This document shows, piece after piece, positions 1-12,456 of a stretch of 12,456 bases of DNA (position 1 is the first letter of the stretch; each line of letters starts with the position of its first letter). The stretch lies in UHGV virus genome UHGV-0079174. The stretch is one strand, 5' to 3'. The notes under the pieces were generated by a model that had not been told where the DNA came from, ran no database searches, and saw only the letters and a program-made list of their open reading frames with translations. The stretch is from a virus. The position numbers and the translations under genes were made by a program.

Positions 1-187
1 CATGTACCGGAACTTTAGGTTTTTTTCGTTGAGCGTCGCGAATAGCTTCACTGTGTGGACGTGCTGCATGAACCGGGCGGCTGTCTAAGATTAGCAAGGT
101 CTAAATACACCTCCAGTTTCAGATGGTTCCTAAAGGTGATGCTTGTGGTTATGATAGACAGAAAGATAAGACTTCCGAGGGTTAGCT

Positions 188-1021
188 ATGAGTGATGGGT
201 GGTTAGATTCTACTATGCAAGCAATAAACGATAGGATTAAAAGCCCATTATGGGGATATATCATTCTTGCATGGGTATGGTTCAACTGGCCTAACTTAGC
301 AATGCTCTTTATGAGTGATGCGCCTGTTAAGTTTCGAATAGATTATATACTATCTCAGGAATATTTTTACGCTCATTATCTGCTTGCTCCTGTCTTTTTT
401 GGAGGTGTGCTAGCTGTTATTACTCCTTATGCTCAATGGTTACTTTCTCTTGCTCAAAAATGGGCTACAGATAAACACAATGAAAATGTTTATCTTACAA
501 AGGAAAAAGAATACTTGGATTCAATCAGGTTAACGGGGTTAAAGGTTCGGGCTGCCAGAGAAGAAGAGAAAGAAAATGCTAAAATTGATGCTGATATTAA
601 AGCGGAAGTAGAGCGTGGTAAGCGTGAAGAGCTGGTCACAGAAGAGCTACAGACAGAGAAGAAACTGATTCAGAAAGAAATTAATAATTTAAAGCAGTTA
701 GTATCTAAAGAAAAACAAACCATTGAAAATATCGAGATAGAAAAAGAGAGACTACAGGATTTGATTGTTGCCTCACTTGAGGTAATGGATGATTTCTTTA
801 AAGTTGATAATAGCCATTCATTACAGCAATTGAAGAGTAGGGTAGAAGAACTTTTAACAGTTTCTGATATTGAAGCTTCTACCATACGTAACGCGCTACG
901 ACAAAAGAAAGAGCTAACTTCATCACAGACAATGAAAATGTTCGATATGGTAGAGGCTAAAATTAAAAAGGAAAAAGAAAAAGGTAATAATATAGAGTCG
1001 AATGAATTAATTAACCAATAA
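188..1021 (+). CDS. Hypothetical membrane protein: two N-terminal hydrophobic helices followed by a long charged coiled-coil-like C-terminal region
   Basis: 277-aa ORF from the track. ATG at 188 preceded by GAGGG (177-181). Hydrophobic segments WGYIILAWVWFNWPNLAMLF and HYLLAPVFFGGVLAVITPYAQWLLSLA, then an E/K-rich heptad-like sequence. No catalytic motif recognised. Confidence 0.6.
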   Translation: MSDGWLDSTMQAINDRIKSPLWGYIILAWVWFNWPNLAMLFMSDAPVKFRIDYILSQEYFYAHYLLAPVFFGGVLAVITPYAQWLLSLAQKWATDKHNENVYLTKEKEYLDSIRLTGLKVRAAREEEKENAKIDADIKAEVERGKREELVTEELQTEKKLIQKEINNLKQLVSKEKQTIENIEIEKERLQDLIVASLEVMDDFFKVDNSHSLQQLKSRVEELLTVSDIEASTIRNALRQKKELTSSQTMKMFDMVEAKIKKEKEKGNNIESNELINQ

Positions 1022-1061
1022 TGCTATGCCTGTAAATAACAGGACATAAACAGGTTAGTAC

Positions 1062-1309
1062 CTATGCAATTTAACGGTATTTTTCCAAGTATCTATGCAA
1101 TCCTACACAGATTCTATACAGTATCGACATAGCCCCTTTTTATCATAACTTATTGAAATATATAGAGAATCTGTAAATCCTCTTTTCAGGGTAAACTGTA
1201 TCGTGTTAGTCGTTCCTCTCTCGACACTACATACAGTGCTATATACAGGACTATATAACGGTGTCTATGCAGTTGGTCACTATCAATATTCCCTTAAAGT
1301 GACTATCAA
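1062..1309. repeat. Cluster of short direct repeats (iteron-like) in non-coding DNA
   Basis: CTATGCAAT at 1062-1070 and 1093-1101 (31 bp period); CTATGCAG at 1265-1272; GT(C/G)ACTATCAA at 1276-1286 and 1299-1309 (23 bp period). No ORF in the supplied track in this stretch. Confidence 0.4.
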
Positions 1310-1457
1310 GCTACTTAATAGTTTCCTATATGAAAGTTAGGAGGCGATAGTTATAGTTCCTTCGTAGTTCCCCTTAAAAAATCACTTAGAGACATCTTAA
1401 TCTATATGCAGATTTCACGTAGAACACGATTAGTGCGTAAAACAGCTATTATGTTAA

Positions 1458-1486
1458 AAACACACTGTGTTTATATCAGTACTGAT
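1458..1486. promoter_or_regulatory. Two adjacent palindromes, operator-like
   Basis: AAACACA-C-TGTGTTT (1458-1472, 7-bp arms) and a perfect 12-bp palindrome ATCAGTACTGAT (1475-1486), 2 bp apart. Confidence 0.3.
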
Positions 1487-1637
1487 TTATAAGGGTTTTG
1501 TGTATTGGCTGATAAGAGGCTATACAGCACCTTGAGAGCATGTCTTATAAGTCATTGACACATAAGGTCACAGAAGTTTGTAGCTGTTACAGAGAAAACT
1601 GGATAGGACTTCACAGAATTATAAAATGTTACAGCTA

Positions 1638-1665
1638 TTGATAGATGAAATCTTCTTGATAGATG
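1638..1665. repeat. Exact 10-bp direct repeat TTGATAGATG x2
   Basis: Copies at 1638-1647 and 1656-1665, 18 bp period, in non-coding DNA. Confidence 0.4.
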
Positions 1666-1916
1666 CTTTGAAGTGTGGTTAAGGTTTCTTGAGGTGGAGT
1701 TAACAGATGCCATGAAGAAAGTCAATAATTGGTTATAGATATTTTAACTGCTTTTGCAAAGGGGGGAGCTATATCGTGAATCTGGGGCACTTAACAGCCA
1801 TCAATTGAGTGTAGATATTTTTGAAGATTATCGGTGAAGGGGAATGTAGAGGGGTTACTACGATATTTATAAAAATTTTCAGACTCTGAAAAGTTACTGT
1901 ACAGATTTTATACAAA

Positions 1917-1940
1917 CTAAAAAGGACTCCCGAAAGAGTC
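1917..1940 (-). terminator. Candidate intrinsic terminator on the minus strand
   Basis: Stem GGACTC (1923-1928) / GAGTCC (1935-1940), 6-nt loop. On the minus strand the hairpin is followed by TTTTAGTTTGT. No T-tract follows it on the plus strand. Confidence 0.3.
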
Positions 1941-1975
1941 CCTATAAGTCGATTTTTAACGTGGCTACGACAATC

Positions 1976-2029
1976 CACCCATACCGCACCAAACCTTACC
2001 CCACCGAACCGCACCCTACACGACCTTAC
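1976..2029. repeat. C-rich (plus strand) / G-rich (minus strand) imperfect tandem repeat
   Basis: CCGCACC occurs twice and CCTTACC twice within about 55 bp (roughly CACC..ACCGCACC..CCTTACC repeated). Compositionally unlike the flanking AT-rich DNA. Confidence 0.3.
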
Positions 2030-2550
2030 CTCGCCGGACACTGCCATAGAGAGTGTGCTTGGTTGCTTTGGAAGTAAACCTAGTACAGTAAGCCATTATA
2101 CATATCGAGATAGTAACGTCAAGAAACTTTTAACAGGAGGGGTTCCTATGGTCACATATTCCCTCTCTTCCCACTAAGTAAGTCTTAGCAGCACCTAAGC
2201 AACAATTGACTAACAGGTTCGGTAGAGTCTATCTCATAGGTCAACTTCATAAACTCAGAGTTAAGTTACCTTGAAAGATTCTACCAAGAAACTACACAGG
2301 TGTTATTTAGTCTGACTGTGAAGGGATATTTAACGGGAGGAGAGATACGATATAACCCGAAGGGAGAGTATCATCTTAACAATTATCTTAAGAATAAAAC
2401 TGAAAAGTTCTTAACAGATGACTACCTAGAAAGAAGGGAACGATAAGACCAGAGGTAGTGACCTTGTTAAACAGGCTGTTTCAAAGCTCTTAAGAGTCTG
2501 TTAAGTAAGGGCTATGTGAACAATCTTACCATTTTGTCAATGCTTTTGTC

Positions 2551-2596
2551 TTTAGCAAAAAGTGCTAAACTTAACAAAAAGCACTAAATGCTAAAG
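2551..2596. promoter_or_regulatory. Repeat and inverted-repeat cluster just upstream of the methyltransferase gene
   Basis: TTTAGCA (2551-2557) / TGCTAAA (2563-2569) inverted repeat; 15-mers CAAAAAGTGCTAAAC (2556-2570) and CAAAAAGCACTAAAT (2575-2589); AAATGCTAAAG at 2586-2596 recurs at 3716-3726, and a related AAATGCTA lies in the promoter spacer at 4181-4188. Confidence 0.3.
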
Positions 2597-2634
2597 AGAC
2601 GATTAAGAAATATACTAAGAGGGGCGCTTCGCTT

Positions 2635-3303
2635 GTGTCACATCCAATAATCAATGTTGGTCGTTATCATGGTGGTTCTGATGACTGGCGTACACCGTAT
2701 CGTTTATTTCATAATCTGCATCGTGAGTTTAACTTCAGTCTAGATGGCGCTGCAACTGAGCATGACGCATTGTTGCCACGGTTCACCGATGATATTCACA
2801 ATCAATCATGGGTTGGTGAACGGGTCTTCGTTAACCCGCCGTTTAGCATGGCTGAAAAGTTCCTCTTAAAAGCCCCTGAAGCTGATGTGTGTGTATGTCT
2901 GGTTCCGCTCAGGTCAAAGACAACTTACTGGCTTCGGTGTGTATATACAAACCCCTTCCTGCATGAGATTCGAACGTTGCACCGAGCAGTCAAATACCTT
3001 CCACCAGCAGGAAAGAGAGGTGTTGTAGTGCGCTCACCGTTTCCAAGTTGCGTTTTGATATACAGGAACACACCCCGCAAACCGAAAGTTGAAGTTACCC
3101 AGACAATCTATTGTGGTGACACAATGCTTTTACTTGCCGTGGTTAACAGGGGTGGTTTACGTGGAAGACCTCATATGCACAATGCACAGACGCTTGACAG
3201 GTTGATTAAAATGTATGACCAAGGGCAACCCATCAAGAGCATCGCAGAATCGCTAAGAATGCCTCTAAGCACCACTTACAGGATTGTTCAAAGGTTGGGC
3301 TGA
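2635..3303 (+). CDS. Phage Dam-family DNA N6-adenine methyltransferase with C-terminal helix-turn-helix extension
   Basis: 222-aa ORF, GTG start 9 nt after AAGAGGGG. N-terminal DDWRTP, then VFVNPPFS (N/DPPY/F-type catalytic motif) and LVPLRSKTTYW...SPFPS, the pattern of phage Dam-type orphan methyltransferases. The last ~40 aa (GQPIKSIAESLRMPLSTTYRIVQRLG) read as a resolvase/Hin-type HTH. Family assignment is from motif memory, not a search. Confidence 0.7.
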   Translation: MSHPIINVGRYHGGSDDWRTPYRLFHNLHREFNFSLDGAATEHDALLPRFTDDIHNQSWVGERVFVNPPFSMAEKFLLKAPEADVCVCLVPLRSKTTYWLRCVYTNPFLHEIRTLHRAVKYLPPAGKRGVVVRSPFPSCVLIYRNTPRKPKVEVTQTIYCGDTMLLLAVVNRGGLRGRPHMHNAQTLDRLIKMYDQGQPIKSIAESLRMPLSTTYRIVQRLG

Positions 3304-3350
3304 AGTTCTCATATAGAGCACTGATTACGAGAATGTTAAAGATGCGATTT

Positions 3351-3541
3351 CCCCTTTCTGGGGTTATTCGCTTTTTACTGGAAGGGTTATTTTACAGAGG
3401 TTTTTCAAACCCCCTCAATAATAGAAACGAGCAACAAACGAAGAGCGAGAAATAAAAATATTGAGACTGGTGAACGGGGGTCTGTAAAGATTGTTTAAGA
3501 AGTCGGTTAAGAAGGTGGCTCTCCCTGTCTGGGGTTATCGC
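3351..3541. repeat. Direct repeat CCCT..TCTGGGGTTAT(T)CGC x2, about 171 bp apart
   Basis: CCCCTTTCTGGGGTTATTCGC (3351-3371) and CTCCCTGTCTGGGGTTATCGCC (3522-3541), in DNA with no ORF in the supplied track. Confidence 0.35.
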
Positions 3542-3768
3542 CTTGTGTCTTAGTGAGTCTTGAAAGTTCTCTGTGAAGAGTCTTGTCAGTCCTTTATATT
3601 GGCTAATTACAACTCATTGAAAAAATAAGCATTTTTAGAAATTACTGTCAGAGGGGTGAATACTTGATAGATACAGCTTTCCGGTTCTGTCAAGCTATTT
3701 ATTAATGGATAGCACAAAATGCTAAAGATACCCCTATACCATCACGTACAGGGGGTTTTGAAGGGAGT

Positions 3769-4026
3769 TTAACGGGGTTCTGTGTGGTCGTTATCCTTAA
3801 GGTCAAGCGTCCATGTACGACCGAACAGTTTAAAGACAACAAGCACTCTGACGAGGACGTAGCGAAGTAGCAGACCTGCAATCAGCCCAACACCTCCACC
3901 AGCCCATACATCAGGTGACCCCAGCTCAGGAGGGAGATTTACCATTAGTTTTCCTTGTAAGACGCTCTCAATCGCATTCTGACACAAAAAAGTACCTGAC
4001 CTTATATGTTGACCTGAAGAGGCCAT
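3769..4026 (-). CDS. Hypothetical small protein with one hydrophobic segment; coding status uncertain
   Basis: 85-aa minus-strand ORF with hydrophobic stretch GGGVGLIAGLLLRYVLVRVLVVF. A candidate minus-strand promoter lies upstream (4126-4155). Weak ribosome-binding site. Confidence 0.3.
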   Translation of the reverse strand: MASSGQHIRSGTFLCQNAIESVLQGKLMVNLPPELGSPDVWAGGGVGLIAGLLLRYVLVRVLVVFKLFGRTWTLDLKDNDHTEPR

Positions 4027-4125
4027 TTAACTCGTTACAGAGCGATTGAAGAGGTCTGTGTGCAATGCAATAACCATGCGGCCATTCTCATAGCCACGCC
4101 TCATATTTTACTCTCCCATAAACCC

Positions 4126-4155
4126 ATTATACCACAGATGTTAATAAAATGTTAA
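4126..4155 (-). promoter_or_regulatory. Candidate sigma70-type promoter on the minus strand, divergent from the plus-strand promoter
   Basis: On the minus strand: -35 TTAACA (plus 4150-4155), 18-bp spacer, -10 TATAAT (plus 4126-4131). Confidence 0.3.
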
Positions 4156-4161
4156 AAATGC

Positions 4162-4190
4162 TTGACATTAGTCTTTGAAAATGCTAGTAT
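4162..4190 (+). promoter_or_regulatory. Sigma70-type promoter (first of two matching promoters)
   Basis: -35 TTGACA (4162-4167), 17-bp spacer, -10 TAGTAT (4185-4190), followed by TGTATATATAGG (4191-4202), which is identical to the 12-mer after the second promoter. First gene starts 51 nt downstream. Confidence 0.55.
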
Positions 4191-4240
4191 TGTATATATA
4201 GGTTAACACAGAATTAACAATTATAAGGACTAGCTTATGA

Positions 4241-4795
4241 ATGAGAGACGCAGAATTTAGAGCGATGCTTCAGGCATCGAGACAACGTAACAGATACAAC
4301 TCCTACAGCTACACAGACACCCCCACCAGCTACGAATTACCCAAGCTCACCCAAAAAGAACGCAAAGGCATTGACGAAGTAATTCGGGCAATTACACCGA
4401 GGGAACGTTATATGCCAACCAGAAAGAGCACGAAGAACAGCATCAAAAATTATTTGAATAACTTCGACAGCTATGAGCAACTACCAAGTAAGCTTGATGA
4501 TATTTTCATTGGATTCTGTAGAAGTGAAGGCCACCCGAAATACAACAAAAAACTATTTTATCTTCTAAAGAATCTTGACGAAATTAACGCATCCAGCGTG
4601 ACAAATCGTCTTCAGCGTCAAGCAACCAGACTTAGCTACGAATTACCAACCGATGCCTATTGTGCATTGCTTGCTGTAATGTGTGCAAAGCTAATTGGTA
4701 TTGTTGAACATCATATTGCCGTTGGTAATATTGAGCCAATGGAAAACGAGCAACCAGACTTTGAGTTTGACCCGTATATTTTGGAGGAATTTTAA
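4241..4795 (+). CDS. Hypothetical protein with acidic C-terminal tail
   Basis: 184-aa ORF, ATG at 4241 preceded by TAAGGA. C-terminal EPMENEQPDFEFDPYILEEF. No recognisable domain. Confidence 0.55.
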   Translation: MRDAEFRAMLQASRQRNRYNSYSYTDTPTSYELPKLTQKERKGIDEVIRAITPRERYMPTRKSTKNSIKNYLNNFDSYEQLPSKLDDIFIGFCRSEGHPKYNKKLFYLLKNLDEINASSVTNRLQRQATRLSYELPTDAYCALLAVMCAKLIGIVEHHIAVGNIEPMENEQPDFEFDPYILEEF

Positions 4796-4796
4796 A

Positions 4797-5078
4797 ATGG
4801 GAAATAAACACACATTAACCAGAGTTACAAAGACAGCCTTTGAAGAGCTTAACCGAATCAAAAACATTACAGGTCTGCCACACTCAGCAGTGATGAAGCT
4901 TGCAATTAACCGTGATATTAACGAACAAGATTTGCTTAATAGTCGCTTAGAGGCAGCAAGACACCATATCAGGATTAAGCAAGATGACCTTGATAGTCTG
5001 AAATATTTAAATGCTTTTGGACTGGATTTAGCAAGGTTACTAAGCATCAAAATTCACAAATTAGCGATGGAGGTTTAA
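4797..5078 (+). CDS. Small protein, possibly a ribbon-helix-helix DNA-binding protein
   Basis: ATG at 4797 sits 9 nt after GGAGG (4783-4787) and 1 nt after the upstream stop; the track's 4695 start would overlap the upstream gene by 100 nt. N-terminus KHTLTRVTKTAFEELNRIKNITGLPHSAVMKLAI resembles a strand-helix-helix pattern. Fold call is tentative. Confidence 0.5.
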   Translation: MGNKHTLTRVTKTAFEELNRIKNITGLPHSAVMKLAINRDINEQDLLNSRLEAARHHIRIKQDDLDSLKYLNAFGLDLARLLSIKIHKLAMEV

Positions 5079-5464
5079 TGTATGACTTTTATAAACATCG
5101 TGACCATTTGGTAAGATTTGACGGTAAAGTCTGGAAAGACGTAACACAAACCAATAAACCCAAGTTTACCCACCAGCAATTAGCCTCAAGATTTGATATC
5201 TGGACTGAAGCACAAAAAGATAATGGTGATTTCGAGTTTATCAGAGGTTTTGATTATTCTTACGAAGACGACCTTAAAGACGCCATTAAATTAATTGAGA
5301 ACTTCAACTCTATTAAAAATGGTGACAAGCACAAAGCCAACGGTAACAGATACGATAAAGATTTAATCATTGATGCAATCACCAAAGGACAATCACAAAG
5401 TTATATTTCTGAGAAATACGGCTTATCACGTAGTCAATACTACAAGATTAAAGCGTCTGTGTAA
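5078..5464 (+). CDS. Hypothetical protein with C-terminal helix-turn-helix
   Basis: 128-aa ORF. Its ATG overlaps the upstream stop (TAATG at 5076-5080), indicating translational coupling. C-terminal DAITKGQSQSYISEKYGLSRSQYYKIK is the same resolvase-type HTH flavour as the methyltransferase C-terminus. Confidence 0.6.
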   Translation: MYDFYKHRDHLVRFDGKVWKDVTQTNKPKFTHQQLASRFDIWTEAQKDNGDFEFIRGFDYSYEDDLKDAIKLIENFNSIKNGDKHKANGNRYDKDLIIDAITKGQSQSYISEKYGLSRSQYYKIKASV

Positions 5465-5476
5465 GTCTGTGAGAAT

Positions 5477-5523
5477 GAGTGAGACTCAAAGATGAGCTAC
5501 CCTATTACTAAGGTGTCTCACTC
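5477..5523. promoter_or_regulatory. 9-bp perfect inverted repeat GAGTGAGAC / GTCTCACTC separated by 29 bp
   Basis: Arms at 5477-5485 and 5515-5523, between two genes. No T-tract follows, so it is more likely a binding site or RNA structure than a simple terminator. Confidence 0.3.
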
Positions 5524-5602
5524 CCTCTGTAACCCGCATGGTTACTGGCCTCAGGATGGCTATTTTGGCAGATTTAAGATGTGTTTTTAGAGGATTTTAA
5601 AA

Positions 5603-5926
5603 ATGAATAATTTCCCGCTACAGATTTTCGTTGATAGCGACACCGCTCTGATGATTCAGGCTTTCAGTGATTCCGGTGTATCAATTGACTTTGATAAATT
5701 ACTAAAGCTAATGGCTGATAACTCAGAAACAATTGAAGATTTTATTCAGGAAATTGAAACTGGTGACCCACGTTTTATGTTTCCCGTTACCGACTCAAAC
5801 ATGAAGCGCCTTATTATTGAGGAAACTAACCGATACAGCGTTAGCCCTGAAAAATATCTCAAGGCGGCTATAGTAATTTTGTACGCTGACAATGTTTTGG
5901 TTACGGATTCGAAGGTGGTGCATTAA
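5603..5926 (+). CDS. Hypothetical acidic protein
   Basis: 107-aa ORF, ATG at 5603 preceded by AGAGGA (5589-5594). Confidence 0.55.
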   Translation: MNNFPLQIFVDSDTALMIQAFSDSGVSIDFDKLLKLMADNSETIEDFIQEIETGDPRFMFPVTDSNMKRLIIEETNRYSVSPEKYLKAAIVILYADNVLVTDSKVVH

Positions 5927-5991
5927 TGGAATTGGTGATTATCTGTTTTGTATTGATTGGTATGATTGCAGGTGCATCTATTAAAGTATAA
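5926..5991 (+). CDS. Candidate 21-aa hydrophobic micro-protein MELVIICFVLIGMIAGASIKV
   Basis: ATG overlaps the upstream stop (TAATG at 5924-5928). Almost entirely hydrophobic, one predicted transmembrane helix. Below the ORF-track size threshold. Confidence 0.3.
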   Translation: MELVIICFVLIGMIAGASIKV

Positions 5992-6015
5992 ATGTTACCA
6001 ATCTGTTAAAAGCTG

Positions 6016-6044
6016 TTGACAAATAACCTTGAGCATGACATAAT
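6016..6044 (+). promoter_or_regulatory. Sigma70-type promoter (second of two matching promoters)
   Basis: -35 TTGACA (6016-6021), 17-bp spacer, -10 CATAAT (6039-6044), followed by TGTATATATAGG (6045-6056). Confidence 0.55.
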
Positions 6045-6146
6045 TGTATATATAGGGAGAGCAATTCTCCTTGAATTAAAATATTAATCATTCTACATCG
6101 ATGATAACTATATTCTGAGTTGGAAAGGTGCAATGCTTTTCGCTAC

Positions 6147-6175
6147 ATGACCTCTTATATAACTTGAGAGGTCAT
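6147..6175 (+). promoter_or_regulatory. Hairpin in the long leader (9-bp stem ATGACCTCT / AGAGGTCAT, 11-nt loop)
   Basis: Perfect 9-bp inverted repeat about 100 nt downstream of the predicted start site. No T-tract follows. Confidence 0.35.
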
Positions 6176-6234
6176 CTCGAAAAGTCTTTGTTCATTCATT
6201 GAATCCTTTAGATGTTCTTTAATTTCTTCACCTT

Positions 6235-6270
6235 AGCCCTTTATAGCGTTTTAGTTATCTAGGGCTTTTT
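6235..6270 (+). terminator. Terminator-like hairpin inside the leader (possible attenuator)
   Basis: Stem AGCCCT (6235-6240) / AGGGCT (6261-6266), 20-nt loop, then TTTT (6267-6270). Lies about 190-220 nt downstream of the promoter and about 110 nt before the first gene. The long loop weakens the call. Confidence 0.3.
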
Positions 6271-6378
6271 CAGCTTTTAAAAAGCATACATGGCAAACGC
6301 TTTTAAGTCTCTTCTAAGTTCGTAGGCTGTCAGGTGTGCTTTTTAAAAACTGAATATTACTTAGAAGAGGAAAATGAA

Positions 6379-7086
6379 ATGGAAAATCTATATATTAGCG
6401 GTAGAAAGGTTGATAGCTTCGGTGACTGGTCGCCACAGACTGAACATCCAGCTATCACTATTCAGCGTAAAGAACACGATGAAAGAATTAAGCTTGAGCA
6501 ATCGTTAAAGATGTCACCAAAGGTAATTTCCTTTGTGTCTCCTGAGCCTCAAGAAATGCCAGATATCTGCAAAAGTGAAGCACTATTTAATCTTGAGCGT
6601 GAATATTACCCACAGTTAAAAGCACAGCGTATTAAACTTGATGACGCTTACAGCAAAGTTACCCTGATGCAATCAGCTATTGAGCCGTCAGAATTTGAGA
6701 TTCAGGATGAATTGTCACAGAAACCATTTGTCTATTACAAATATGAAGACAATGATGGTTTTGGTACTTTTCCTGAGAATATCCCAGACGTGATTAATAA
6801 TCTTTCTGACGGATATCGAATTGTGAAGATGGTTAAGGCATCAAGAGGTGCTGGTCAGTTTATTTACATGACTAATAAGAGCGATGAAGAACTCGCTGAA
6901 CTTGCTAGACAGAACATCTTGGCATCACGTAACAAGCAGCTTGATAGTGCTAAGTTGTATCTCTCAAGAGAGCTTCAGGCTATGAAAGAGCTTGTTAGTG
7001 AATATGAGTCGCAGAAGAAGGTTGCTATGCAGGCTGATATTGAGCAGCTTACGAAGATTTCTAGCAAATATGCAAAAGCTATTTGA
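6379..7086 (+). CDS. Hypothetical protein with C-terminal coiled-coil-like region
   Basis: In-frame ATG at 6379 preceded by GAGGAAAA (6367-6374); the track's GTG at 6334 has no ribosome-binding site. 235 aa from 6379. No recognisable domain. Confidence 0.55.
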   Translation: MENLYISGRKVDSFGDWSPQTEHPAITIQRKEHDERIKLEQSLKMSPKVISFVSPEPQEMPDICKSEALFNLEREYYPQLKAQRIKLDDAYSKVTLMQSAIEPSEFEIQDELSQKPFVYYKYEDNDGFGTFPENIPDVINNLSDGYRIVKMVKASRGAGQFIYMTNKSDEELAELARQNILASRNKQLDSAKLYLSRELQAMKELVSEYESQKKVAMQADIEQLTKISSKYAKAI

Positions 7087-7094
7087 GGTGATTA

Positions 7095-7403
7095 ATGAGT
7101 GATTTAACAGAACGCGATAAAAGAATTAAAGGGGTGATGGAACCTTTTGAAGATAGGTTCAATGAAATTAAAACGACTCTTGGTGATATTCAGGAGGTCA
7201 CTGAATATCTTATTGGTCGTATGGACGAAAAGCCTCTTGCCGAACTAAAGTTTGAGGGTCGAGATGATTTAACCTTCCTTATTAGAGACCTCAAGCGAGA
7301 TGTAGGACGGCTTGAATCTATCTTTGATAAAGCTGGTCTCTCAATACGTTACGAAATTGTAAAGAATGAACGCGGTGTAAAGTGCATTCACTTCTTGGAG
7401 TGA
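7095..7403 (+). CDS. Hypothetical small acidic protein
   Basis: 102-aa ORF. Extended Shine-Dalgarno GAGGTGAT (7085-7092) before ATG 7095. N-terminus MSDLTER. Confidence 0.55.
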   Translation: MSDLTERDKRIKGVMEPFEDRFNEIKTTLGDIQEVTEYLIGRMDEKPLAELKFEGRDDLTFLIRDLKRDVGRLESIFDKAGLSIRYEIVKNERGVKCIHFLE

Positions 7404-7425
7404 AAATTGAATTATGAGGTGATGA

Positions 7426-7632
7426 ATGATTGATTTAACAGAACGCTATGAACTCATCAGGGCAATTAGCGAACGATTGAAAGAACAACCCAACAAACCA
7501 AAACGAATCAAATCATCCACCTCTAAGCAAAATAACAGAATCAGAAGAATCGCTAAATGGTGTCTTGATAAATTACCAAGTGATTGTCAGATTGTCGGTG
7601 AAGATGGCAATTATTATCTTGTCAGACATTAA
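7426..7632 (+). CDS. Hypothetical small basic protein
   Basis: 68-aa ORF. GAGGTGAT (7416-7423) before ATG 7426. N-terminus MIDLTER. Its first ~37 bp are near-identical to the start region of the gene at 7095. Confidence 0.5.
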   Translation: MIDLTERYELIRAISERLKEQPNKPKRIKSSTSKQNNRIRRIAKWCLDKLPSDCQIVGEDGNYYLVRH

Positions 7633-7658
7633 AAAGAATTGGTTGGGTAAAAATCAAC

Positions 7659-7699
7659 GGGAGAGATTATCGAGTGACATCGGTAGCTCTCCCTTTTTT
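7659..7699 (+). terminator. Candidate intrinsic terminator
   Basis: Stem GGGAGAG (7659-7665) / CTCTCCC (7687-7693) followed by TTTTTT (7694-7699). The 21-nt loop is long for a canonical terminator. Confidence 0.4.
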
Positions 7700-7814
7700 G
7701 TATATGTGCTACGTGATGATTCGGATAAGAATTATCCTCATGAAATCTGTAAAGCTAATACCCACACTGAAAAATAGAATTTACGTACAACACGCTTAAA
7801 GAGGTGAAACATGA

Positions 7815-9863
7815 ATGAGCAAATTCACAGTTGATAGTTTTATCGTTGAACTAGGCTTCAATGAGAACGTTATTAAAGGTCTGCAAAAAGTTGAAAAGGC
7901 AGCTTTGCAGTCAGCACAAAGAATTGAACGTAATTTGAATAGAGCGTTTAAGGTCGATACCAAGCAACTTGACAGTAATTTAACGGCTTCTTTAAAGTCA
8001 ATGGAAGGGAAGATTAATAAGACCTTTGACCGTCTGGAAGCTAGAGCAAAAAATACTAAAGCTTTCCGTTTCACAAGTCAGGTTAATGACGCTATTAATC
8101 CTCCAAAACAACCAAGACAGCCACGAATTAGCGGAAACAGAGCAATCACAGCAGCTTATTCAGCTAATATGAGCAAGCTGAAAGGTCTTAACCCAATTGT
8201 CGAGAAATACATTAAGAGTCAGTTTTACGCATTAAGTAGTAAAGCTGGTCAGATGGATAACACCAAGTTTAATGAAGCCCTCGCTAAACTAAATTCAAGT
8301 GTACGAGAAGCAATTGCTAAAGCCAGAGGTCATACATCCACCAGCATTAACGGTGACAGAGCAGCTAGCAGTCTTGATAGTCTGTCTTCAGCAGCAGTTA
8401 AAACAGCAGGTGCATTTATCAGCTTTCAGGCTGTACTATCCGCTTATCAGCGAGTAATGGAAGTTGGCCTTCAACGTGCATCATCGGAAAGAAGTATTGA
8501 TTTCGTATTCGGTGACCAAAGTACACAGGTTAAAAAGTTCATTCAAGATTTAACTCAAATTACTGGTATGGACACAACCGAAACACAAGCACAATTTGCT
8601 TCATTTGGTGCATCTGCAACGACTACGATGGGTCTTGAAGGGTCAGAAGAGTTATTTAAAAACCTTACAGGTTATGCTCGTTTAATGGGTCGTTCAGATG
8701 AGCAGATTCAAAGAGCATTAACCGCAGTGTCACAGATGGCCTCTAAGGGTCAGGTGATGGCTGAGGAGTTGAAGGGGCAATTATCTGAAGCTTTGCCGGG
8801 TGCTACTCAGGCATTTGCAAAGGCTTTAGGTCTGACTGAAAAACAACTTTTCGATAAGATGAAAAATGGTGATGTTAAAGCCTCTGATGCACTTCCTAAG
8901 TTTGCTAAAGAACTTGGTGCACAGATTAATTCAAGAGGTGGCTGGAAAGCTATTCAGGACTCTACGCAGACAATGTTAGGGAACTTAAAGAATACCTGGA
9001 ATAACTCACTAACGGATATTTTCAGAGGTTCTGAAAATGGTCTGCAAGATTTTACACGAAGCCTAACAACGCTTTTAAACAGTTTAGGTGGAAGTGGTAA
9101 AAGTCTTGGTGAATCTCTTGGTAGCTTGATGACTGATATGTCGCATGGTGTGGATAGCCTGACCGATATCAGTTACAGAGTGAGAGCTTTCTTTGATGAG
9201 GTGACATTGGCTTACCGTGGTTTAACCGATGAGCAAAAGAAAGTAGTTGATGCTTTAGGTTCTGGCTTGATTAATAGTTTAAAAGTCTTGGCTGGTGTTA
9301 TTGCTGTAAATAAAGTTGTTGGTGTAACCAGAAGTATTTACGGGCTTATGACTGCTATCACAAGATTAGGTCAGGTCGCTGATACAACAGCGGATAACGT
9401 GAATAGAAAGAACGGGAAACCATCAAGGTTTAATCTTGGGAATATGCTATTAGCTGGTAGTGCTATCTATGCAGGTTATGAGAGATTAGCTTCTACGCCT
9501 GAACGAATGGAAGCACAAGCTAAATTACCAGAGCTGGCTAAAGAGTCTGGACTTAAGCCAGTATTTACTATGGACGATGTGAAAGGTTGGTTTAATAGTG
9601 CTGCTATGAATCTTGCTAACTTCCAGCATCCAGAATTAATCACCATGAGACAAGATGCGGCATTAACGAATACGGATATCCAAAGCCTGAGAGATGAAAT
9701 TAGTGCTTTGAGCAAACGTATTCAGGAGCCTGTGAAAGTTTCACTTGGTGGTGAAGTTGCCATTAAACCAGATGAAACCAGCTTTATGACCTTTAGCAGT
9801 AATATCTACGACCAATACGCAGAAGCTACGCTATTAAGTTCATCATTCCCAGAAGATGATTGA
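7815..9863 (+). CDS. Tape-measure-like protein (phage tail length tape-measure domain)
   Basis: 682-aa ORF, AAGAGGTGA before ATG 7815. Central segment KGQVMAEELKGQLSEALPGATQAFAKALGLTEKQLFDKMKNGDVKASDALPKFAKELGAQ matches the conserved tape-measure domain pattern from memory. A/S/G/L-rich helical composition with internal hydrophobic segments. Confidence 0.6.
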   Translation: MSKFTVDSFIVELGFNENVIKGLQKVEKAALQSAQRIERNLNRAFKVDTKQLDSNLTASLKSMEGKINKTFDRLEARAKNTKAFRFTSQVNDAINPPKQPRQPRISGNRAITAAYSANMSKLKGLNPIVEKYIKSQFYALSSKAGQMDNTKFNEALAKLNSSVREAIAKARGHTSTSINGDRAASSLDSLSSAAVKTAGAFISFQAVLSAYQRVMEVGLQRASSERSIDFVFGDQSTQVKKFIQDLTQITGMDTTETQAQFASFGASATTTMGLEGSEELFKNLTGYARLMGRSDEQIQRALTAVSQMASKGQVMAEELKGQLSEALPGATQAFAKALGLTEKQLFDKMKNGDVKASDALPKFAKELGAQINSRGGWKAIQDSTQTMLGNLKNTWNNSLTDIFRGSENGLQDFTRSLTTLLNSLGGSGKSLGESLGSLMTDMSHGVDSLTDISYRVRAFFDEVTLAYRGLTDEQKKVVDALGSGLINSLKVLAGVIAVNKVVGVTRSIYGLMTAITRLGQVADTTADNVNRKNGKPSRFNLGNMLLAGSAIYAGYERLASTPERMEAQAKLPELAKESGLKPVFTMDDVKGWFNSAAMNLANFQHPELITMRQDAALTNTDIQSLRDEISALSKRIQEPVKVSLGGEVAIKPDETSFMTFSSNIYDQYAEATLLSSSFPEDD

Positions 9864-9875
9864 TAATAGTCGAAT

Positions 9876-9930
9876 GCTACGTGAAATCTCCTGAACAGAT
9901 ATACCCACCAAAAATTATTTTTCACGTAGC
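9876..9930. promoter_or_regulatory. 11-bp perfect inverted repeat GCTACGTGAAA / TTTCACGTAGC separated by 33 bp
   Basis: Arms at 9876-9886 and 9920-9930, between the tape-measure-like gene and the next gene. TTTCACGTAG also occurs at 1413-1422. Confidence 0.35.
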
Positions 9931-10020
9931 TCACGCTTAACAGATAAAACACTTAAATATCAAAGGCTTGGTTAAAAATGATTAAAATACACTAAGTCTT
10001 TGAAATCAAAGGAGAATATA

Positions 10021-10794
10021 ATGATTTACACTAATCAACTTCGTTACAGTGGCAAAGATGGTATCTATTTCCACTTAAGAGATAATGTAGATGCCTTCTT
10101 AACCTTATCAGCAACTGAAAACATGGAATTTGACAGCCCTATGCAGGTGACTACACAGAACATGCAATCAGGGCAAACCGTAACAGATAACGTGCAAAGA
10201 GCACCCAGAACAATCACTATTAGTGGTGTCGTTGTAGTTGGCTATGAAGGAAGCTTATTATTAACTCGTCAGGGTCAATTAGTAGAAAATTTCATCGACA
10301 CTCTTGAAAGCTGGCGTGACCAGAAGCAGATTATTTCTGTCATCTGTCGAGACGGTATCAAAATTGATGATTCCATTATTACGAGTTTTAAAGCCTCTAA
10401 AGATGTTGGAATTTCAAATGGTCTAAGAATCCAGCTAACTTTTCAGGAAATTAACTTCAAAGCCATTGTGGGTCAGACTGATATCTCTGCTGCAACTGGA
10501 AAGACCGCTACCACAAATGATGGTGGTGCTACTTCTAAGAAAAATACGGGTAACACTACGACAAGTCTAGGTAATGGTATGTTGATGTGTCAGGAGCTAT
10601 ATAATCGCTCTACGAGTGAACTCACTAATGAGCAACTTCAAGCCCGTATCAATTGTGGTAGAAGTGTCAAAGTTGAGAACGGAAAAAGCACCTTCTCAGA
10701 TGCCGCTAATGAGCAAGCTTCGAAAGTGCTTAGTAATGCTGGTACAGGTAGTACTTTGAAGAAATTTTCTGTAAATCCTAACAAGCGATACTGA
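10021..10794 (+). CDS. Hypothetical protein, possibly tail-associated by position
   Basis: ATG at 10021 sits 6 nt after AAGGAG (10009-10014); the track's TTG at 10000 is less likely. 257 aa from 10021. C-terminal third is T/G/N/S-rich low complexity. Function is inferred only from lying immediately after the tape-measure-like gene. Confidence 0.5.
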
Positions 10795-10808
10795 CGATAG
10801 AATCTCAA

Positions 10809-12332
10809 CTATATGATAACCTCATCAACATCTATTAAACCCCTCTCAGTGACTTCAGAAAGCGACTGTATAGCCTCTGTAACGTCCTCTGAGGGGTTTT
10901 CTGTTATTGATAGGTCAATTACCTTACCGTTGTGAAAACTTACTTTACAGCGACGTTTAGCAGTATTTAAAACGACCTCTTTAACAGCACTTTTGATTAT
11001 CAGTTGTGCTTCAATCCTTCCCGCCTTTGTAGTCAAGTCACAATCAGACAAACAACCAACATCAATAGATTTAAGGCGTTGTGTCTCCTTCTCGATATCC
11101 GCATCAACCTGTGATAGCTCACCTTTTAACTGCTTTAGTTTGATGGTAATAGCTGACAAATCTTCAATTTCAAGTGATAGCTGTACCAGCTTTTCAATAT
11201 TGCTTGAGATGTGTTCACGGTGTAGCTTCAGCGTATCTATGGTATTCGTCATATCGCTATCAAATCGGTCAAGACGAGATAGCAGGGTAAGTAATGTACC
11301 ATCAGTTTGCTTACGTGAAAGTCCTTTAGCACTACAACGGTTTTCATTACGAAGGGGACAACGATAAATCCCGCTTCTTGTATCGCTAAAGCCTGTGATA
11401 ATCAAAGCATGACCACATTCAGAACAACGGATAACACCTTTGAAAAGATTCACAGCCATTGGCTTATCTGAAGCAGGTTTTCTACCGTAACGAGAATATG
11501 ATAGTTGTTGAACTTTGTAGAATGTTGTTTCATCTATAATTGCAGGATAATAACCAGCTATCTCCTCACAGCCTTTAGGTGTGAAGTAACCAATTACAGA
11601 GCGATTTTTCAGAAGGTCTTGTACTGAGGTTTGACCAAATGAACCCGCTTTATATTGGTTAAGCGTCTGGTGACCTTCATCATTAAGAGTCCTGACAATC
11701 TCCCAGATAGACTTACCCTCTAACCGTAGCTGAAAGCACCTCTTCACAGTCTCCACTTTCTCAGGGATTACAGAGAAGCTTTTACGGTCATCATTAAGCT
11801 TAAGCCATGCAGGACAACGTTTAGAAATCTTGATACCTTCAGAGATGAGTTCTTTTTTACGGTTCCATGCAGCTTGTATACGCTCAGACTTCCTCAAACT
11901 CTCCTCATGCGACCGCTGCATTATCAGAATGCTTTTAATCAGAGCTAACGGGTCTTTAAGAGATTCTCGTGTGTAATGTTCACCATCGGACAAGGTGACC
12001 ACATCTACACCAGAGCGAAGAATGTTTCTGAGTAGCTCACTTGCTTGGTCTACATCTTGACGTGACAGACGGTCAAGAGATTCTATCAAGAGCGTATCAC
12101 CAGCTTTAACAAGCCCTTTCTCGATAGCGGTTAAAAAGTCACCTAAGCCACCTTTCAAGTGCTTACCAGTGAACCCACTCACCCCCAAATCACGGAAGGA
12201 TAAATCTTGGTCAAGGTAGTACTCAGGATGAGCCTTAAGCCAGTCATTAACCATCTTAGACTGTCTGCGTAGTGAGTCGCCTTTGGCTTGTCGCTCAGAA
12301 CTGAATCTGATGTAGCTGATTACACGTTTCAT
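10809..12332 (-). CDS. Large serine recombinase (probable integrase of the element)
   Basis: 507-aa ORF. N-terminal resolvase-type catalytic domain with YIRFSSERQ (nucleophile-serine motif, compare YIRVSTEEQ), a Cys-rich zinc-ribbon-like segment CSECGH...YRCPLRNENRC, and a C-terminal coiled-coil region. This is the domain order of phage-type large serine integrases. Confidence 0.85.
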   Translation of the reverse strand: MKRVISYIRFSSERQAKGDSLRRQSKMVNDWLKAHPEYYLDQDLSFRDLGVSGFTGKHLKGGLGDFLTAIEKGLVKAGDTLLIESLDRLSRQDVDQASELLRNILRSGVDVVTLSDGEHYTRESLKDPLALIKSILIMQRSHEESLRKSERIQAAWNRKKELISEGIKISKRCPAWLKLNDDRKSFSVIPEKVETVKRCFQLRLEGKSIWEIVRTLNDEGHQTLNQYKAGSFGQTSVQDLLKNRSVIGYFTPKGCEEIAGYYPAIIDETTFYKVQQLSYSRYGRKPASDKPMAVNLFKGVIRCSECGHALIITGFSDTRSGIYRCPLRNENRCSAKGLSRKQTDGTLLTLLSRLDRFDSDMTNTIDTLKLHREHISSNIEKLVQLSLEIEDLSAITIKLKQLKGELSQVDADIEKETQRLKSIDVGCLSDCDLTTKAGRIEAQLIIKSAVKEVVLNTAKRRCKVSFHNGKVIDLSITENPSEDVTEAIQSLSEVTERGLIDVDEVII

Positions 12333-12361
12333 TCTTTACCACCATAAAAACTAATAGCGCG

Positions 12362-12390
12362 ATTGTATCGCTTTAGGTGGTGTATTTAAA
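12362..12390 (-). promoter_or_regulatory. Candidate promoter for the recombinase gene
   Basis: On the minus strand: -35 TTTAAA (plus 12385-12390), 17-bp spacer, -10 TACAAT (plus 12362-12367). The -10 overlaps the palindrome GCGAT-TGT-ATCGC (12359-12371). Confidence 0.25.
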
Positions 12391-12456
12391 CGTGTCTGAT
12401 GAAAATCACCCGATTAACGCCGCGCTGATGTAAACCGCGATTAAGCGTTTGTTCCT

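Follow-up and report, generated by a model that had tools for sequence, protein, structure and literature searches.

The virus genome UHGV-0079174, whose whole stretch of 12,456 nucleotides (nt) we call the window, carries a gene that joins a small phage-type methyltransferase core to the DNA-binding module of a serine recombinase. The gene is a plus-strand open reading frame (ORF) of 222 amino acids (aa) that starts with GTG, and its coordinates, 2635-3303, include the stop codon. The identical RefSeq coding sequence in Escherichia coli FDAARGOS_1252, WP_096972668.1, is labelled 'DNA N-6-adenine-methyltransferase', and the whole window matches the chromosome of that strain at 100%. The original prediction, made from the sequence alone, had called the gene a phage gene; its place is a chromosomal island and not a phage genome. 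The window consists of one mobile island of ~12.3 kb, at about 111-12400, that has a serine integrase and is inserted in E. coli yecE.

We give about an even chance to the explanation that the protein is a working orphan N6-adenine DNA methyltransferase in which the arm and helix-turn-helix (HTH) anchor a minimal core on DNA or target it. A small PF05869 core of phage type is permanently joined, via a flexible G-R-P arm, to a serine-recombinase DNA-binding module. The HTH would most likely add DNA affinity and some sequence preference to the core, and the island would benefit from protective or epigenetic methylation of its own and the host's DNA, for instance by escaping restriction once transferred. 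That the protein is active as an enzyme, that its HTH binds DNA and what its role is are what we infer; in favour of this explanation we counted the conserved NPP[FY], the domain calls, the separate fold of the HTH, the modularity of the family, selection, the orphan status and the island position of the Pantoea homologue.

Methyltransferase core and recombinase-type module

The original prediction had described a Dam-family methyltransferase followed by a C-terminal resolvase-type HTH. A Pfam scan of the protein returned PF05869 and HTH_7, each above its own gathering score. The PF05869 (Dam) match covered aa 15-105 with 51.8 bits against a gathering cut-off of 28.1 (E 1e-13), and 12 of the 13 clade members matched the same family. 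PHROG 111, 'DNA methyltransferase', matched over aa 15-164, and PADLOC classed the protein as an 'orphan methyltransferase'. Despite its Pfam name 'Dam', PF05869 differs from PF02086, the family to which E. coli Dam belongs.

The three motifs quoted in the original prediction were located in the core: DDWRTP at aa 16-21, NPPF at aa 67-70 and SPFPS at aa 134-138. In 21 aligned alleles of the E. coli clade, N67, P68 and P69 were invariant and position 70 was F or Y. W18, T20, P21, D37, A39 and A40 were also invariant, and the D-x-W-x-T-P and L-D-x-A-A segments were conserved. The NPP remained near-invariant in homologues of 41-57% identity.

An AlphaFold2 model was built from a 13-sequence alignment, with a mean predicted local distance difference test (pLDDT) score of 81. 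The predicted fold was an alpha/beta methyltransferase up to aa 172, then a low-confidence linker (aa 173-180) and a separate three-helix bundle, in agreement with the independent HTH domain that had been proposed. Aa 153-172, C-terminal to the PF05869 core, form a beta-hairpin that is specific to the clade. A Foldseek comparison of the full model with the PDB gave no close solved relative; the matches were weak and of the generic class I S-adenosylmethionine methyltransferase fold (PacII M subunit, KsgA/DIMT1 and MTA1). The catalytic core is minimal, and no target-recognition domain can be recognised in it. The non-specific adenine methyltransferases Hia5 and Hin1523 were considered as relatives and rejected: they are 281 aa long, align with DpnII and EcoKDam and carry an FxGxG motif, and they belong to a different class.

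The HTH sequence, SIAESLRMPLSTTYRIVQRLG, stands in the protein as it had been quoted. HTH_7 (PF02796) matched aa 177-217 of the full protein with 26.0 bits (gathering cut-off 23.8); the C-terminal 76 aa scanned alone gave 28.9 bits (E 1.2e-6), and 11 of the 13 clade members matched HTH_7. The helices were predicted at aa 184-195, 200-206 and 211-221. Modelling the last 69 aa alone produced the same beta-hairpin and three helices.

The relationship to serine recombinases includes the arm. A profile of the C-terminal part matched the Sin/Bin3 resolvase (PDB 2r0q) with an E-value of 3e-6, arm included, and the G-R-P arm aligned with 'KGVYKGRPLLY' directly before the 2r0q HTH. The same profile matched gamma-delta resolvase (2e-4), Tn3 resolvase (9e-4) and, weakly, Hin (0.22). 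With the small model, Foldseek placed the DNA-binding domains of Sin/Bin3, gamma-delta, Tn3 and Hin at ranks 1-2, 4-6, 16 and 26, with probabilities near 1 and E-values that are weak as the domain is short. Residues G173-P179 were invariant in the 21 alleles. The label 'resolvase-type' is thus apt, given the HTH_7 score and these profile and fold matches. The Pfam scan found no PF00239 resolvase catalytic domain in the fusion protein. The appended piece is the complete arm and HTH module of a small serine recombinase, minus the catalytic domain. Capture of the HTH from the small serine recombinase that adjoins the gene in sibling islands was considered and rejected, the two having no significant BLAST similarity.

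We asked how widespread the fusion is. A word-indexed search gave 561 relatives, of which the best 120 were nearly all full-length (220-222 aa) and came from E. coli, Shigella and Escherichia albertii at 68-93% identity. NPP[FY], the G-R-P arm and much of the HTH were invariant in the 21 aligned alleles. An exhaustive search of 1.84 billion cluster representatives (50% clustering) returned 2,678 relatives. Among the best 150 of these, the alignment reached the HTH in just 12, about half of them fragments; the essentially full-length clusters with an HTH numbered six (P0122, P0123 and P0128-P0131, 41-57% identity). The remaining relatives in the best 150 reach no further than query residue ~183, and their length is mostly 140-200 aa. 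The family is therefore usually single-domain, as the original prediction had supposed from phage enzymes, and in this census the HTH is not a standard part of it. Full-length fusions of 35-45% identity were found in Pantoea borealis, Erwinia typographi, Pantoea piersonii and a Scandinavium genome. No record in 50,697 phage genomes covered at least 80% of the protein, and the fusion was not found in IMG/VR. A literature search found no description of a PF05869-HTH_7 fusion.

The junction after the core is used in different ways. The nearest single-domain relatives, P0135 and P0139 (43-46% identity), end right after the core, and P0134 has the clade beta-hairpin followed at the same junction by a different, 250-aa extension. 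Other family members are fused to a second methyltransferase domain or to a weakly matched Lar-like segment. Modularity is a trait of the PF05869 family, in which the HTH_7 fusion forms a single clade that is small, old and so far limited to Enterobacterales. Its domain architecture is genuinely uncommon and conserved, and not radical.

Both halves of the gene are under constraint. In ten intact E. coli alleles, the ratio of non-synonymous to synonymous substitution rates (dN/dS) was 0.19 for the methyltransferase part and 0.24 for the linker and HTH; thus, both halves are maintained by purifying selection. These values bear on the suspicion that the fusion is an annotation or assembly artefact, with two genes read through, or else a decaying pseudogene or dead methyltransferase. 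The copies in ECE218 and RM9154-C1 are indeed annotated as a methyltransferase plus a 'helix-turn-helix domain-containing protein'. However, the splits go back to mutations in what is otherwise the intact gene: the ECE218 copy (L002 5636-6304) is 98% identical over all 222 codons and has a nonsense mutation, a stop at codon 113, and the methyltransferase-HTH gene of RM9154-C1 (L023 1437-2103) carries a frameshift. The ORF is intact, at 220-222 aa, in hundreds of contigs from four genera, and dN/dS is about 0.2 in both halves. An artefact or a dead gene is thus hardly credible, being excluded by the conservation and selection data.

Flanking DNA and the 19-nt motif

Two non-coding regions flank the gene (1022-2634 and 3304-4240), as had been noted, and the sole annotated ORF in the second is one small minus-strand ORF. 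The original prediction had placed possible targets of the HTH in these regions and had pointed to repeats at 2551-2596. These repeats exist and consist of a 19-nt motif in two inverted copies, with a further copy at 3710-3728 (Table 1). The motif consensus is TAGCAC-WWWW-TGCTAAAGA, which contains the palindrome TAGCA-N5-TGCTA. The window holds three matches against 0.08 expected by chance, all of them in gene-flanking non-coding DNA. One motif half, TTAGCAAAAAG, may resemble the A-tract-containing half-site that the Hin HTH and arm bind in the Hin-hix system.

These copies bear on the main alternative, in which the protein would be both methyltransferase and transcription factor: an operator at the gene's own promoter, or at another island promoter, would be bound by the HTH, and the methylation specificity would lie in the core. 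This alternative overlaps with the favoured explanation and does not exclude it; we consider it unlikely, if the least unlikely of those weighed here. The inverted pair, with its internal palindrome, lies 38-86 nt upstream of the start codon, and the third copy, 407 nt downstream of the stop, is likewise not expected by chance. There is also precedent for a separate transcription-regulating DNA-binding domain on a methyltransferase (PMC3978073, PMC2760811). Variation among E. coli loci argues the other way. The upstream pair belongs to a segment of ~75 nt that is flanked by a conserved TTGTCA and the ribosome-binding site (RBS) and has two alleles. The 19-mer pair is present in the window, L002, L018 and L019, whereas L015 and L020-L025 have an unrelated segment. 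The window's recognition helix (STTYRIVQRL) occurs in L020, L021 and L022 with the upstream segment that lacks the 19-mer, and the other HTH allele occurs in L015, L024 and L025 with that same alternative segment.

The third copy is equally hard to tie to the gene. It was kept in L015, in L016 (the F070 island, at 10245-10263, which has no methyltransferase) and in L018-L025, with one mismatch in L002, and it was exact in most sibling islands. It adjoins a terminator-like hairpin (3731-3754) that comes after the small minus-strand ORF. The F070 island lacks the methyltransferase ORF and keeps the region upstream of it up to the RBS, where the stretch agaggggcgcttcgctt is retained even there; among the sampled E. 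coli alleles, this stretch is kept in all but L017. The non-coding regions beside the gene are part of the conserved backbone in islands with and without the gene alike. The conservation of copy 3 in an island without the gene argues that the 19-nt motif is a backbone cis-element, which may or may not be read by the HTH of the fusion, and the idea of HTH targets in the flanking non-coding DNA is weakened without being refuted.

Further points count against self-regulation. No sigma-70-like promoter was detected on the plus strand in 2400-2634, and there is no partner restriction enzyme that would need timed control. Other proteins of the island core could also be binders. ORF 5078-5464 (128 aa) ends in an HTH with a weak HTH_28 match, and a 93-aa ORF (4797-5078) looks ribbon-helix-helix-like by eye; either may bind the 19-nt motif. 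Upstream of the homologues from Pantoea, Erwinia and Scandinavium, inspection by eye showed no palindrome shared with the E. coli motif.

A stronger version of targeting is that the HTH steers methylation to a few sites, either the backbone TAGCA-N5-TGCTA motifs or sites in Felix O1-like helper phages, and so sets a local epigenetic mark. We think this improbable. If true, the local mark would control induction, replication or packaging in a hitherto undescribed family of tail-gene-carrying phage satellites present in ~10% of E. coli genomes, and the protein would be a natural counterpart of engineered targeted methyltransferases.

Several findings weigh against the favoured explanation of a working DNA methyltransferase anchored by its HTH. 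The PF05869 match spans only profile positions 9-109 of 169, and the NCBIfam equivalog TIGR01712 (phage_N6A_met) scored 40 bits, far under its cut-off of 97.05. These scores place the protein in a divergent PF05869 subfamily and not among the TIGR01712 equivalogs, and DNA as the substrate is not guaranteed. Most family members work, or presumably work, without an HTH, so the core may not need it for catalysis. The gene is dispensable: its start was found in 108 of 440 genomes that hold the backbone segment 2500-2553, and it is therefore optional cargo, present in about a quarter of islands. Some copies are the pseudogenes described above (L002, nonsense; L023, frameshift). Finally, across 12 E. 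coli loci no candidate site tracked the HTH allele, the co-variation of 19-mer and HTH being inconsistent.

The carrier island

Coordinates of the gene, its parts and the other features discussed are collected in Table 1.

Table 1. Positions in the window of the fusion gene, its domains, the 19-nt motif copies and the island genes
Feature	Position	Strand	Basis or remark
Methyltransferase-HTH fusion, coding sequence	2635-3303	+	ORF list; identical RefSeq coding sequence WP_096972668.1
N6-adenine methyltransferase domain, aa 15-172	2677-3150	+	Pfam, PHROG, AlphaFold2 secondary structure, weak Foldseek matches, dN/dS 0.19
Catalytic motif IV N-P-P-F, aa 67-70	2833-2844	+	Allele alignment
Linker or 'arm' G-G-L-R-G-R-P-H, aa 173-180	3151-3174	+	Low pLDDT; clade conservation; 2r0q alignment
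Three-helix resolvase-type HTH, aa 184-221	3184-3297	+	HTH_7, profile and fold matches, dN/dS 0.24
Shine-Dalgarno-like AGAGGGG	2618-2624	+	10 nt before GTG start; read from sequence
19-nt motif copy 1, TAGCACTTTTTGCTAAAGA	2549-2567	-	86 nt upstream of start codon; candidate operator; pattern search
19-nt motif copy 2, AAGCACTAAATGCTAAAGA	2579-2597	+	Inverted relative to copy 1; inverted-repeat (I7) and pattern searches
19-nt motif copy 3, TAGCACAAAATGCTAAAGA	3710-3728	+	Conserved backbone element, not limited to gene-bearing islands
Tape-measure protein	7815-9863		Best phage relatives Felix O1-like and Moogle-like tape-measure proteins, 28% identity, full length
Dit-like tail/baseplate protein	10000-10794		DNA 92-95% identical to Felix O1-like phages over ~535 bases
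Large serine recombinase (island integrase)	10809-12332	-	Resolvase + Recombinase + Zn_ribbon_recom

The window ends are the two halves of yecE, a DUF72 gene. Besides the integrase, the island carries a tape-measure gene and a Dit-like gene; in ESCO50, one of the Felix O1-like phages, the Dit-like gene directly adjoins the one for the tape-measure protein. The seven ORFs in 4241-7632 had no PHROG match, and six of them gave at most one weak HTH match in Pfam. Related sequence was found in 524 of 5,426 complete E. coli genomes (about 10%). Sibling islands share the backbone and differ in cargo: the F070 island has an AP2/ERF-annotated gene and no methyltransferase, and three other strains have a small serine recombinase upstream of the methyltransferase gene. 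One sibling adjoins yciI rather than yecE. The Pantoea homologue is placed likewise, with a tape-measure gene and a large serine recombinase downstream of it.

Comparison with L015, L016, L017, L018, L024 and L025 points to at least three variable cargo slots in this island family (window 111-1025, 1911-2328 and 2554-3509). The left-end slot holds a 277-aa gene (188-1021) that is absent in L015 and L016; judged by eye, its product is hydrophobic at the N-terminus and has a middle part that is charged and repetitive. In the window, the middle slot has no cargo; it is the place of the AP2/ERF gene in F070 and of the small serine recombinase in the three strains. The third slot is that of the methyltransferase-HTH gene.

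No restriction-enzyme gene is annotated in the island, and the island ORFs that were scanned gave no match to a nuclease or defence family. The island has the look of a hitherto undescribed satellite of virulent Felix O1-like phages, or else of a defence island that interferes with their tails; a literature search found no account of this island family, of a yecE serine-integrase island or of a Felix O1-like phage satellite. A search of IMG/VR with the integrase returned only prophage-type predictions, judged by their identifiers, and is uninformative on packaging.

This setting raises another explanation, in which the protein is a regulator or interference factor directed at a helper or target phage and general protective methylation is secondary or absent. 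The gene occupies one of the variable cargo slots of an island that also has a tape-measure gene and a Dit-like gene 94% identical in DNA to Felix O1-like phages, and PMC9122126 describes phage-satellite cargo slots as often holding anti-phage or counter-defence genes. However, no phage-derived target was identified, the island functions without the gene in about three quarters of cases, and the strictly conserved catalytic motif argues against a purely DNA-binding role. We regard such a role as possible but improbable.

The yecE locus of FDAARGOS_1252 has a second occupant. The end of a lambdoid-type prophage, with a tyrosine integrase and an excisionase (L001 16815-20457), abuts the other half of yecE beside the island; yecE is therefore doubly occupied in this strain. 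The gene is a known integration site of Stx phages (PMC8112680).

Several other elements were noted in the window. The small minus-strand ORF downstream of the fusion gene encodes 58 aa (3770-3946, RefSeq WP_000247749.1) and looks by eye like a type I toxin or small membrane peptide; its product would be a strongly hydrophobic peptide if the ORF corresponds to the in-frame portion, with an ATG start, of an 85-aa ORF at 3769-4026. The hairpin at 3731-3754 after it may be a bidirectional terminator. The stretch 3571-3955 is the best-conserved non-coding stretch between islands, with 91% identity to F070. An element of ~33 nt occurs twice, at 3335-3367 and 3506-3538, as a CCCC-N5-GGGG hairpin followed by TTATCGC; its pattern is GTTAA.G..G....TCCC.T.TCTGGGGTTAT, and F070 has a similar unit. 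An Rfam scan of the whole window gave no match at E <= 1, leaving the non-coding regions unexplained by Rfam.

The 1.6-kb non-coding region upstream of the gene contains three close-set 17-nt direct repeats (ACCTTACCCCACCGAAC-like, 1978-2039) that may be iterons of a replication origin. They create a minus-strand ORF (1769-2047) that is probably spurious. A strong sigma-70-like promoter at 4162-4190 (TTGACA, 17 nt, TAGTAT, with an upstream TG) stands ahead of the core block that begins at 4241, and a divergent promoter close to the consensus is found at 4155-4126 (minus strand). The ORF at 6334-7086 is called 'transposase' by RefSeq in several genomes; it had no Pfam, PHROG or PADLOC match, and the label looks unsupported.

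Comparison with known systems

The fusion matters in two ways. Small PF05869 enzymes have no obvious target-recognition domain, and a natural HTH fusion is a simple system for studying how they find their sites; it allows one to ask if a tethered HTH localises methylation in the way of engineered targeted methyltransferases. The gene is also the marker of a place where cargo varies in an E. coli island that is abundant, seems not to have been studied and has tail genes in common with Felix O1-like phages. What the gene does, be it restriction protection in transfer, regulation or phage interference, bears on the spread of that island. If the protein is merely a generic orphan methyltransferase with a DNA anchor, the result is a useful annotation and little beyond. 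The carrier island may be a more interesting object than the gene.

Enzymes of the phage T1 Dam and HP1 Dam type are single-domain PF05869/TIGR01712 proteins with GATC specificity. The fusion protein has in common with the single-domain phage PF05869 enzymes the D-x-W-x-T-P, F-x-L-D-x-A-A and N-P-P-[FY] motifs, a core of ~150 aa and the status of an orphan on a mobile element. It differs from them in adding the clade-specific beta-hairpin, the G-R-P arm and HTH_7. Its C-terminal 50 aa, G-R-P arm included, align with small serine recombinases (Sin/Bin3, 2r0q; gamma-delta, 1gdt and 1res; Tn3, 5cy1; Hin, 1hcr and 1ijw). Unlike these recombinases, it lacks PF00239, and the integrase of the island is a separate, large serine recombinase.

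Other methyltransferases have acquired DNA-binding modules as well. CcrM carries a C-terminal DNA-binding domain. Fusions of ParB to a methyltransferase are mentioned in PMC12704722. The logic is the same in both cases, a DNA-binding module with a catalytic core, but the catalytic classes and the folds differ, and no homology is implied. In M.SsoII and M.Ecl18kI, transcription is regulated through the binding of an operator by an N-terminal HTH region of the methyltransferase (PMC3978073, PMC2760811). These enzymes and the fusion protein each combine, in one polypeptide, a methyltransferase domain with a small independent HTH through a flexible linker. However, M.SsoII and M.Ecl18kI are of the cytosine-5 type, have an N-terminal HTH and form part of complete restriction-modification systems, whereas the fusion protein is of the N6-adenine type, has a resolvase HTH at the C-terminus and has no restriction partner. 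An orphan methyltransferase with an appended DNA-binding domain is a kind of protein already known, and the HTH_7 fusion is a new variant of it.

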